From a virus, in IMG/VR virus record IMGVR_UViG_3300020950_000017: a DNA stretch of 6,002 nucleotides; one strand, given 5' to 3'. The notes under the pieces were generated by a model. It was given only the letters and a program-made list of their open reading frames with translations. It made no database searches and was not told where the DNA came from. Every line of letters begins with the position of its first letter. Position 1 is the first letter of the stretch. Both the position numbers and the translations under genes were made by a program. This document shows, one piece after another, positions 2,768 to 5,309 of the stretch.

Positions 2768-2795
2768 ATATTACCAAATCAGCAAAAGCTGTCAA
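2768..2795 (-). promoter_or_regulatory. Candidate sigma70-type promoter: -35 TTGACA (2795..2790), 16-nt spacer, extended TGn, -10 TAATAT (2773..2768)
   Basis: The minus strand reads TTGACAgcttttgctgatttggTAATATagagctATG. The -35 is a perfect match, TG sits one base upstream of the -10, and the -10 matches 4 of 6 positions including the key A2 and T6. The Rep stop TGA (2794..2792) lies inside the -35. The predicted transcription start falls at or next to the A of the ATG at 2761. Confidence 0.45.
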
Positions 2796-2877
2796 GTGCC
2801 GTGATAGATATTAGCTGAACCGCCAAAAACAGGGACACTGAGACTATTAGGATTAAAATTAAATCTTGATTCCACAT
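2779..2877 (-). CDS. Candidate 32-aa single-pass hydrophobic peptide (MWNQDLILILIVSVSLFLAVQLISITALDSFC), overprinted on the Rep 3' end at the position of phiX174 gene K. Not in the ORF track.
   Basis: Hand translation of the third minus-strand frame: ATG at 2877..2875, TGA at 2781..2779. GAGGTG (2889..2884) lies 6 nt upstream of the ATG. Residues 6-28 form an uninterrupted hydrophobic stretch. The ORF starts 24 nt after the B-like stop and ends 18 nt before the C-position ATG. Confidence 0.35.
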   Translation of the reverse strand: MWNQDLILILIVSVSLFLAVQLISITALDSFC

Positions 2878-4240
2878 CTGCTACACCTCTACCAATTACC
2901 TTAAAACCTGCCGTGAGTTTTGAGCTCATCGGGCGTATCGATTCCAAAGAACTCAGCTGGTTGCGGAGTGGTCTCATCTTTGTTATACATCTGGAAGGCG
3001 GTAGCAATGTCGCCTTCGGCTTTATAGCCATCAATAGTAAATGTATTCGTCTCGGCTTCATCCGACTCAACATCACCTTCACCATCAGCCTCTTTATTAA
3101 TCTTGTTGGTATCCAGCGATCGAACATCTGTATCGGGATTCTGTTTAATCTCATCAGCTGTAGTATCTGGGTTTGCGTTAGTTTGTTGAGAATCGCTTTC
3201 AGCTGATTCAATCCGTGATTCCGAGTTTGTCTTAATCTCCATAACTTCTTACCTCCAGATAAATCTAAGTCTTGATCTTTGACTAAATATTTAACTACAT
3301 AATAACAGATTGCTCTTATATCGCTAGTCTTAATTGCGGAGTAGTTGCCAAGCTCATCCCTAGCGACCGGAAAACGCCAGCCCAGCTTACTGTATGGGTC
3401 ATCAGCACTTGTTCTCACAGCAATTGGCGAGCTAAATCCATAGTTCCAGTATTCTTTAAGTTCCTGTATCTCACGCAACGCAGGTGCGGGCGGATGTGTT
3501 GAAGTATAGCTAAAACGAGAATTAGGATCACGCCAGCCAGCTGGCAAAGCCTTAAGCCACATTAAACAATGTATATGAAGGCGACCAGTCTCACTGCCTC
3601 TCTCTACACAGGCGAAGTAAGTAAGCACCTCAGGTTGATTCTGTGCTTCTCTAACCGAGCCATATACTTCAATCTGAACGGCTCTTTTCACCTTTCTTAT
3701 ATGATTACGCCAACATCTGCTACCCTTCTCAAACACTTTGTCTAGGTGCTCTGGAGCGACCGTGAGAGTATTGAAAATGGGATACCATCCCTGATGTCTC
3801 TTTTCAAATGCCTCACAAACAAGCCTAAACATAGCTTGGCCGTTACTTGCCTTCCTAGCTTGCTTGGCTACTAAGTGCCAAAATATGGCGTCTACGCCTT
3901 TCTTCCGGCTGCGGTGAGGAGCGTAGAAGCCAAATAGTGCCTCACAGTGGGACTGGTGATCGGGATACTCTTTGAATAAATCTGTTAATTCTGCTGACAT
4001 TATACGGCGGTGGTCCATAAAATCAGTAATATCAAGTCGGCAAAACTGAAACGAGTTATAGTAGTCATATAGACGCTGGAGATGGTTGAATATTGAAGGA
4101 TCGGTGCCAGAGGCTTCGGCGTGACAATAGAGGACACGCAAACGGTTTTCAAGCCGTCTGAATAGCTGATAGGTCCGGTCTTGGAAGTATGACCGTGCGA
4201 AAGGGCCTTCTTTACTTTTTGAGTTGCTTGCGGATTTCAT
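2792..4240 (-). CDS. A: Rolling-circle replication initiator (HUH endonuclease), phiX174 gene A family, 482 aa from the ATG at 4240 (the open frame extends to a TTG at 4351, 519 aa)
   Basis: Motif 1 is GWYPIFNTLTV (phiX GWFIVFDTLTL). Motif 2 (HUH) is GRLHIHCLMW, with HIH = CATATACAT at 3577..3569 (phiX GRLHFHAVHF). Motif 3 is YYVVKYLVKDQDLDL, with paired tyrosines 4 residues apart (phiX FYVAKYVNKKSDMDL). AAGGAG (4250..4245) lies 4 nt upstream of the ATG at 4240. FARSYF, 14 residues in, resembles the phiX A N-terminal MVRSYY. Confidence 0.9.
   Translation of the reverse strand: MKSASNSKSKEGPFARSYFQDRTYQLFRRLENRLRVLYCHAEASGTDPSIFNHLQRLYDYYNSFQFCRLDITDFMDHRRIMSAELTDLFKEYPDHQSHCEALFGFYAPHRSRKKGVDAIFWHLVAKQARKASNGQAMFRLVCEAFEKRHQGWYPIFNTLTVAPEHLDKVFEKGSRCWRNHIRKVKRAVQIEVYGSVREAQNQPEVLTYFACVERGSETGRLHIHCLMWLKALPAGWRDPNSRFSYTSTHPPAPALREIQELKEYWNYGFSSPIAVRTSADDPYSKLGWRFPVARDELGNYSAIKTSDIRAICYYVVKYLVKDQDLDLSGGKKLWRLRQTRNHGLNQLKAILNKLTQTQILQLMRLNRIPIQMFDRWIPTRLIKRLMVKVMLSRMKPRRIHLLLMAIKPKATLLPPSRCITKMRPLRNQLSSLESIRPMSSKLTAGFKVIGRGVADVESRFNFNPNSLSVPVFGGSANIYHGT
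2901..3242 (-). CDS. B: Internal scaffolding protein, phiX174 B-like, 113 aa, encoded entirely inside Rep in another frame
   Basis: GGAGGT lies 8 nt upstream of the ATG at 3242. The protein is acidic, polar and low in complexity. Its C-terminus FQMYNKDETTPQPAEFFGIDTPDELKTHGRF matches the recalled phiX B C-terminus IYARFDKNDWRIQPAEFYRFHDAEVNTFGYF, which is the capsid-binding aromatic tail. The B-within-A nesting is the same as in phiX174. Confidence 0.8.
   Translation of the reverse strand: MEIKTNSESRIESAESDSQQTNANPDTTADEIKQNPDTDVRSLDTNKINKEADGEGDVESDEAETNTFTIDGYKAEGDIATAFQMYNKDETTPQPAEFFGIDTPDELKTHGRF
4010..4039 (-). other. Viral-strand origin of rolling-circle replication (30-nt Rep recognition and nick site) inside the Rep gene. 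The predicted nick is between G4033 and A4032 on the minus strand.
   Basis: The minus strand reads CGACTTGATATTACTGATTTTATGGACCAC. The recalled phiX174 ori is CAACTTGATATTAATAACACTATAGACCAC. By hand count, 22 of 30 positions match with no gaps, including the ACTTG|ATATTA nick core and the terminal GACCAC. It lies in the same reading-frame context (RLDITDFMDH against QLDINNTIDH). Confidence 0.8.
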
Positions 4241-4355
4241 CAATCTCCTTGCTATTTTGAATGTAGCGACACAAACCAACAGCAAAACGAGCTGAGGCTT
4301 GTATAAGAGGGATGAAGGTGACGAGCTTGGCAATGTATTTAACAGTATCAAACAT
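4212..4355 (-). CDS. Candidate 47-aa small protein (MFDTVKYIAKLVTFIPLIQASARFAVGLCRYIQNSKEIDEIRKQLKK) filling the H-to-Rep gap and overlapping the Rep start by 29 nt. Not in the ORF track.
   Basis: Hand translation: ATG at 4355..4353, TAA at 4214..4212. AAGGAG lies 7 nt upstream, directly after the H stop (TAA AGGAGTATATTG ATG). It has a hydrophobic core (residues 8-29, interrupted by K10 and R23) and a charged helical tail. It is in a different frame from Rep. Confidence 0.45.
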   Translation of the reverse strand: MFDTVKYIAKLVTFIPLIQASARFAVGLCRYIQNSKEIDEIRKQLKK

Positions 4356-4367
4356 CAATATACTCCT

Positions 4368-5309
4368 TTATTTATTGAATGGAAGTTTGGGTTGTTGAGG
4401 AGTAATCTTAGGAGATTCTAAGTCAAACTTAGGACGAGGCTTACGCTTCTTAGTGGCTCGCATTAAAGACTTAGCACTAGAAACAAAACGAGAACCATAG
4501 CCAGCAATTCCGATAGGAAGCAAAGCAGTTAGCGTCTTAAATGTATCTTGCCAAGGAATTGATGAGCCATTATCAAAGATTGAAAAAGCGGGCGTAAGAT
4601 AGCCAAGTTCAGTCTTTTTGACATCCGCACGAGACTTAGCCTCAGCCCAAAGCGATTCAGCGTATTTAATATTACCATTATGAGCTTCTGTAATAGCACG
4701 AGCCATCAACAGTTGAGATTCACGAGTTAGTTTTTTGAGCTCAGGTGCGAGTTTTTGTGCGATAGCATTAGCCTCTTGGCGAGCTTTTTCAGATAAGCCG
4801 TAATTAAGTGCTATTTTACTATCTACTAAATCACGACGAACAGAGACTTGAGTATCCCAGTCTTGTGTGTCTTTACCTTCCAAATGAGCCGTTCCTCCAA
4901 CAGTCGCATTGCGTCCTACTGATACGCCGGCCGCAGTGACTTGAGCTCTTGCGTTAATTCTGGCAATTTTTTCTGATGTCCGTAATTTTTCTCTTTCCAG
5001 TTGTGCTCCAAGACCACGAGCACCAACACCGCTACCCGATGAGCCAAGTCGTTCCCACGGATTCGTGCCGGGATATAATTTATTAAATGTATTAAGAAGT
5101 TTATCATCTGCCGTTGGAATACCAAGAATGCGTCCTCCTTGCGATACAAGCTGATTACTAATTAAATCTGAGCCAGCCTGTTGAGTTGACGCACCGAGCG
5201 ACTTGCCAAACGCCGATCCGCCAAGTGCTCCGAGTGCTCCGGAAAGCTTGCCAAAGAAACCGCCACCAGCGATCTTGGAAGCACCTGCTGAAAAAGGACC
5301 TACAGGCAT
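4368..5309 (-). CDS. H: DNA pilot (minor spike / ejection tube) protein, phiX174 H-like, 313 aa
   Basis: It follows the G-position gene as in phiX174 and is similar in size (313 aa against 328). The N-terminus is glycine-rich (AGASKIAGGGFFGKLSGALGALGGSAFGKSLG), like phiX H. YPGTNPWERLGSSGSG matches recalled phiX H FPELNAWERAGADASS. The central region is long, Q/A/E/K-rich and helical. The start overlaps the upstream stop (TAATG at 5311..5307). Confidence 0.85.
   Translation of the reverse strand: MPVGPFSAGASKIAGGGFFGKLSGALGALGGSAFGKSLGASTQQAGSDLISNQLVSQGGRILGIPTADDKLLNTFNKLYPGTNPWERLGSSGSGVGARGLGAQLEREKLRTSEKIARINARAQVTAAGVSVGRNATVGGTAHLEGKDTQDWDTQVSVRRDLVDSKIALNYGLSEKARQEANAIAQKLAPELKKLTRESQLLMARAITEAHNGNIKYAESLWAEAKSRADVKKTELGYLTPAFSIFDNGSSIPWQDTFKTLTALLPIGIAGYGSRFVSSAKSLMRATKKRKPRPKFDLESPKITPQQPKLPFNK

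Follow-up and report, generated by a model that had tools for sequence, protein, structure and literature searches.

Gene K of phiX174 and alpha3 (PF12283, phrog_1713) is a small gene located past the end of B, with its start 86 nt ahead of the A stop (in phiX174, K starts at position 51 and A ends at 136; alpha3 K has the same overlap). It is started by TGATG coupling, runs into C and encodes a charged protein of 53–56 aa (15 charged residues in phiX K) with a best 19-residue Kyte-Doolittle mean (KD19) of 0.6–0.9. Nonsense mutations in K carried no fitness cost (10.64898/2026.07.25.740675). The gene is probably dispensable in phiX174. In the holin–endolysin cassettes of dsDNA phages, a small membrane peptide is combined with an endolysin, and holins typically have a charged, usually basic, cytoplasmic tail. 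M15_3 peptidases, which are endolysin-like, are already known in Microviridae (Roux et al. 2012, PMC3394797). Gene E of phiX174, which encodes 91 aa with a transmembrane (TM) helix and a basic C-terminal tail, lies out of frame in the core gene D and originated by a shift of T-rich third codon positions to middle bases (PMC8227390). The single-gene-lysis (Sgl) genes of ssRNA phages vary freely in position and sequence between phages, and about 10% of the TM-bearing candidates lysed E. coli in a published screen (10.1101/2023.10.16.562596). The Eel River Basin pequenoviruses, the named genomes closest to the one described here, have been proposed as Suborder I; the published survey leaves out overprinted genes as not verifiable by computation, and these are unassessed outside Bullavirinae (Kirchberger et al. 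2022, PMC9239249). A limited literature search found no paper describing a membrane peptide at the position of gene K (the K slot).

A micro-ORF overprinted on the end of Rep

The stretch of DNA analysed here (the window, 6,002 nt) is a complete circular phiX-type microvirus genome of 5,861 nt with a 141-nt terminal repeat. The minus strand carries every gene: Rep/A (482 aa, 2792–4240), a B-like internal scaffold gene in the +2 frame of Rep that ends GRF-TAA (2901–3242), a C-position gene (93 aa, 2480–2761), D, J, the M15_3 peptidase (1382–1903), F, G and H. The same phiX-type gene order is found in the Eel River Basin pequenoviruses (KP087947.1, KP087957.1), with a capsid identity of 43–46%.

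The original prediction described an unlisted 32-aa frame at the 3' end of Rep and named no strand. It is present on the minus strand, with its ATG at 2877 and its TGA at 2779, and encodes exactly the peptide given; the plus strand across 2779–2877 is full of stops. The micro-ORF starts 24 nt past the stop of the B-like frame, which ends at 2901, lies in the +1 frame of Rep, overlaps the Rep end by 86 nt and extends past the Rep stop with its last 13 nt. Its Shine-Dalgarno (SD)-like GAGGTG is located at 2889–2884, 6 nt ahead of the ATG as had been predicted, and pairs with the anti-SD at −7.1 kcal/mol (Rep −7.3, D −6.4) in a start region that is almost unstructured (−1.8). The bases of the micro-ORF are identical to those of a Logan contig from a sponge metagenome, the one public run with this genome and probably its source; the contig is not an independent sample.

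Hydropathy scales, the only TM predictor used and applied with their generally known values, predict a single-pass membrane peptide with one helix at residues 6–28 (2794–2862) and a KD19 of 2.78, compared with 2.79 for phiX E and 0.92 for phiX K. The 23-residue uninterrupted hydrophobic span claimed for the peptide holds insofar as these residues are uncharged; the span does contain three Ser, one Gln and one Thr. As had been stated, the peptide has no basic residues (K+R = 0, D+E = 2), and it is without a basic flank to set its topology. A homo-tetramer prediction gave no answer (score 0.08). Two further readings were rejected: the peptide is not a lipoprotein, as its sole Cys is the final residue and a lipobox is absent, and the micro-ORF is not an N-terminal extension of C, as the frames differ both in the window and in the related genome L007. 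Searches with the peptide by phmmer against 1.84 billion representatives, by tblastn against GenBank phages and in Pfam and the ESM Atlas found no homologue, which for 32 low-complexity residues shows little; PHROGs returned a single non-significant match (E 0.43).

The proposed position of phiX gene K was borne out, since frame and offset are the same: each is a small ORF in the +1 frame of A that begins past the B stop and 86 nt short of the A stop. The idea that the peptide resembles K in being small and hydrophobic was not, as K is not TM-like and shows no sequence match with the micro-ORF peptide. BLASTP of the peptide against phiX K gave no alignment, and membership of the Bullavirinae K family (PF12283) was rejected, with no Pfam match at E ≤ 1 for the peptide and 3e-41 for phiX K itself. 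The manner of initiation differs too. Whereas K is coupled to B, the B-like gene of the window ends TAA-GG without a TGATG, and the micro-ORF has its own SD, ends 17 nt before C instead of running into it and encodes nearly nothing other than one TM helix. In its design it rather resembles, to judge from its sequence, an overprinted membrane peptide of the E type located in the K slot: it shares with phiX174 E the out-of-frame location in a core gene, an equally hydrophobic TM helix and the derivation of middle bases from T-rich third positions, and differs from E in host gene, length, the missing basic tail and the absence of any similarity. It also has the sequence features of Sgl genes, being small, out of frame within a core gene, and equipped with a TM segment and a plausible start.

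Across approximately 30 phiX-like genomes, ORFs often occupy the +1 frame of the A tail: K in Bullavirinae and others elsewhere. In L001, L022, L027–L029, L038 and L039, an ATG coupled to the B stop opens a C-sized ORF of 82–101 aa, which has its start site in common with K. In KP087947.1 (L045; Eel River pequenovirus c15438), an unannotated 80-aa ORF (1205–1447) preceded by the SD AGGAG starts 65 nt before the A stop, takes up the 177-nt gap ahead of the next gene, to which TAATG couples it. Its product has a signal-like N-terminus ending in the lipobox LSAC and an acidic tail, and is likely a lipoprotein. This ORF and the micro-ORF are both SD-led, membrane-targeted by prediction and located in the same slot, with no evident sequence likeness (the two were not aligned). 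The repeated use of the slot, including the membrane-directed product of KP087947.1, raises the prior that a well-formed ORF in it is a gene.

A sigma70-type promoter (TTGACA-16-TAATAT, 2768–2795, with TTGACA at 2795 and TAATAT at 2768) overlaps both the Rep stop and the final codons of the micro-ORF, and was found in all six clade loci checked. Its −10 box ends 6 nt ahead of the C ATG in the window, L003, L018 and L020, which suggests a leaderless C mRNA in these genomes, and the promoter probably drives C. Since it lies at the 3' end of the micro-ORF, the latter must be read from an upstream transcript and not from one that begins at this promoter and continues toward the M15 gene.

Relatives and the chance background

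Four Rep clusters with 41–49% identity yielded complete or near-complete genomes. The window and its relatives form a fully supported clade in which the window branches earliest; in the capsid tree L007 and L010 are sisters, and the window and L007 are not. Further searches with Rep, the capsid, D and a 47-aa gene of the clade (see below) in viral, metagenome and genome collections found no additional clade members. In L007/L017 (Rep 45% identical), AGGAGG lies 8 nt ahead of the ATG of a hydrophobic 40-aa +1 ORF (KD 2.07), which starts 89 nt ahead of the Rep stop and has a TAA that overlaps the C ATG; the L007 variants are identical across this region. In L003 and in L018/L006/L020 the corresponding frame lacks a start and shows no strong hydrophobicity, and in L010 it is broken by stops. 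The original prediction had named a frame interrupted in relatives as evidence against a gene, and this was found in part: the start is absent or the frame broken in two of the three related sponge-phage lineages, while L007 has an equivalent ORF. A scan of five clade genomes returned no off-frame TM ORF that passed strict thresholds (ATG, SD ≤ −7 and KD ≥ 2.0) other than those of the window and L007. The Rep ends of L018 and L020 also differ (487 versus 479 aa) in spite of a near-identical Rep, and the end of L020 matches that of L003, suggesting recombination around the Rep/C junction.

The Rep tails of the window and L007 (35 residues each) align without gaps and with the best score of all pairs. 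In a set of overlapping tests on this one pair from four lineages, with thresholds set after the data had been seen, the +1 peptides compared in the Rep register had 8 of 28 residues in common, where recoding predicts 3.7 (P = 0.014; P = 0.026 given that both frames are open). Third positions were identical in 16 of the 28 codons of the overlap, compared with a fraction of 0.40 in single-coding Rep at this saturating distance (P = 0.05); at identical residues 7 of 8 were identical (P = 0.02), and at differing residues the effect was not significant (P = 0.2). The SD and ATG of the two ORFs are offset by about one codon and do not use the same bases, and BLASTP gave no alignment between the two peptides. 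Taken together, the pair offers moderate support for a selected gene that two lineages have kept and two have lost, a reading we consider somewhat favoured. The micro-ORF was probably present in the clade ancestor and then lost twice, the alternative being two gains.

The strongest rival explanation is that the micro-ORF is a chance by-product of T-rich Rep third positions and has no selected function. In the +1 frame, the middle base of a codon is the third base of the host-gene codon, so that T-rich third positions remove stops from this frame and add Leu, Ile, Val and Phe. The same caution had accompanied the original prediction, rightly, as this effect explains much of the hydrophobicity of the micro-ORF: after the B stop, T occupies 20 of 35 Rep third positions. 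The excess of T in the Rep tail is not significant (P = 0.07 for the window and 0.67 for L007), a point against a selected gene. Gly/Arg and Asp/Asn codons supply SD-like and ATG motifs, and the TTGACA promoter box dictates the C-terminal residues of the peptide. The window genome holds eight other hydrophobic off-frame stretches, and 93 kb of single-coding sequence from 24 phiX-like genomes contained 108 hydrophobic +1 ORFs, of which 44 had some SD and 7 passed the strict thresholds. About 26% of such genomes are thus expected to hold a strict ATG-SD-TM ORF in the +1 frame somewhere. One of the seven lies in phiX174 (L014) itself, where a 38-aa +1 ORF that is not annotated starts at 1272 in F with an ATG, an SD of −8.5 and a KD of 2.21; it is a useful negative control for SD-led hydrophobic +1 ORFs. 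In phiX, 71 cryptic ORFs proved dispensable (PMC6883844). As hydrophobic +1 frames are common in T-rich genomes, the micro-ORF alone is weak evidence, and its value comes from its position and its relatives.

For a given 105-nt window, the background probability of such an ORF is 0.008 (strict) or 0.05 (lenient), and the probability of one match among three other lineages by chance ranges from 0.02 (strict) to 0.14 (lenient). When each Rep tail was recoded synonymously, 0.019 of the trials yielded a strict ORF and 0.12–0.14 a TM ORF with some SD. The L007 ORF could then be a second coincidence aided by shared Rep residues, in line with the absence of the ORF from two of three related lineages and with the lack of homologues in the databases searched. 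Against chance stand the recurrence at one site defined a priori, the peptide similarity and third-position conservation above the null, and the repeated use of the K slot in the family. On these grounds chance is a possible explanation that has to be taken seriously, and we lean towards the reading that the micro-ORF is a selected and translated gene.

Possible roles of the peptide

If the micro-ORF is a gene, ribosomes would initiate at the internal GAGGTG/ATG on the mRNA carrying A and B, and the product would be a 32-aa single-pass peptide of the inner membrane. Its codons would have taken their middle bases from the T-rich third positions of Rep, the route by which such membrane peptides arise, phiX E among them. 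The weakest step is the next one, namely that the peptide would act on the envelope of the host and play an accessory part in phage release or yield, either by binding a host membrane protein or by weakening the membrane in the manner of Sgl peptides. It would be interchangeable with other small membrane peptides of the clade and would not be an obligatory holin of the M15 peptidase. As far as its sequence can tell, the role of the peptide is probably that of a lysis or yield accessory; the full reading, a real, dispensable gene with a role in envelope or release, is plausible and is put forward tentatively. A still more ambitious version, in which the K slot is a recurrent birthplace of unrelated envelope-targeting genes and the micro-ORF peptide a working lysis factor, alone or aiding M15, of a phiX-type phage that has no gene E, is doubtful.

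The original prediction had linked the peptide to the presence of an endolysin in a genome without gene E. In keeping with this premise, the M15_3 peptidase has no obvious signal, and D contains no E-like gene, the best +1 stretch (22 aa, KD 1.63, without SD) having been rejected as one. The genome would thereby resemble a dsDNA-phage cassette in having a small membrane peptide and a signal-less peptidoglycan peptidase, and the peptide could be a dedicated holin whose oligomers in the inner membrane let the enzyme out to the cell wall. The TM segment is as hydrophobic as that of phiX E, the tree permits both micro-ORF and M15 to be ancestral, and dsDNA prophages have M15 genes linked to holins (PMC3394797). 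However, the proposed partnership was not supported by comparison with the relatives. The window, L003 and L018 carry M15, which the complete genomes L007 and L010 lack, and all four combinations with the micro-ORF occur (both in the window, M15 only in L018 and in the complete genome L003, the ORF only in L007, neither in L010), which makes an obligatory pair unlikely. Moreover, unlike dsDNA-phage holins, the micro-ORF is not adjacent to the peptidase, from which it is separated by about 900 nt and located upstream of the late-gene promoter; it is not co-inherited with it, has no charged tail, basic or otherwise, at its C-terminus and no family match. A better conserved amphipathic gene is present in all lineages, and in L003 a further 47-aa gene lies next to M15. 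A dedicated holin is thus improbable.

Equally hard to sustain is a translational relay, in which the short ORF permits re-initiation at C on the long A/B transcript and the peptide is incidental: in the window C lacks a usable SD (−2.8) and starts 17 nt past the micro-ORF stop, and the ORF stop overlaps the C ATG in L007 and KP087947.1, but C has a conserved promoter, which in the window and in the ORF-less L003 and L018 is placed to give a leaderless transcript, and in L007 C has an upstream GGGAG, so that we regard this explanation as quite unlikely.

Several other small genes of the clade are candidates for a membrane function. A basic amphipathic gene of 47–54 aa between H and A is found in every clade member (window 4212–4355, minus strand, 47 aa; L003 1736–1900; L018 1596–1754; L007 1050–1214; L012 1684–1842), with 30–49% identity and eight invariant residues. 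It has no family match, is conserved regardless of M15 and, from its sequence, is the most consistently conserved membrane-active candidate, competing with the micro-ORF for a membrane or lysis function. The M15-less genomes L007 and L010 each have one strong ATG-led TM peptide, at different places, resembling the free replacement seen among Sgl genes. In L012 (1571–1687, equivalent to L010 3081–3197), an SD-led 38-aa gene past H encodes a strong C-terminal TM helix (KD 3.32) and is a candidate for stand-alone lysis in a genome without M15. L003 carries a 47-aa gene coupled directly 3' of the M15 peptidase (4796–4939) and a 49-aa hydrophobic +1 ORF overprinted on M15 (4315–4464, SD −5.6), both of which are candidate M15 partners in that genome.

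For the selected, translated micro-ORF that we favour, conservation is patchy, the phage is uncultured and there is a real chance of a codon-bias artefact. The finding bears on the exit of phiX-like phages that have no gene E from their hosts. Should the peptide be produced and functional, it would count as a new small protein acting on the envelope, perhaps through a cell-wall or membrane target that is itself new, and one reading-frame slot would have been refilled with unrelated membrane genes.
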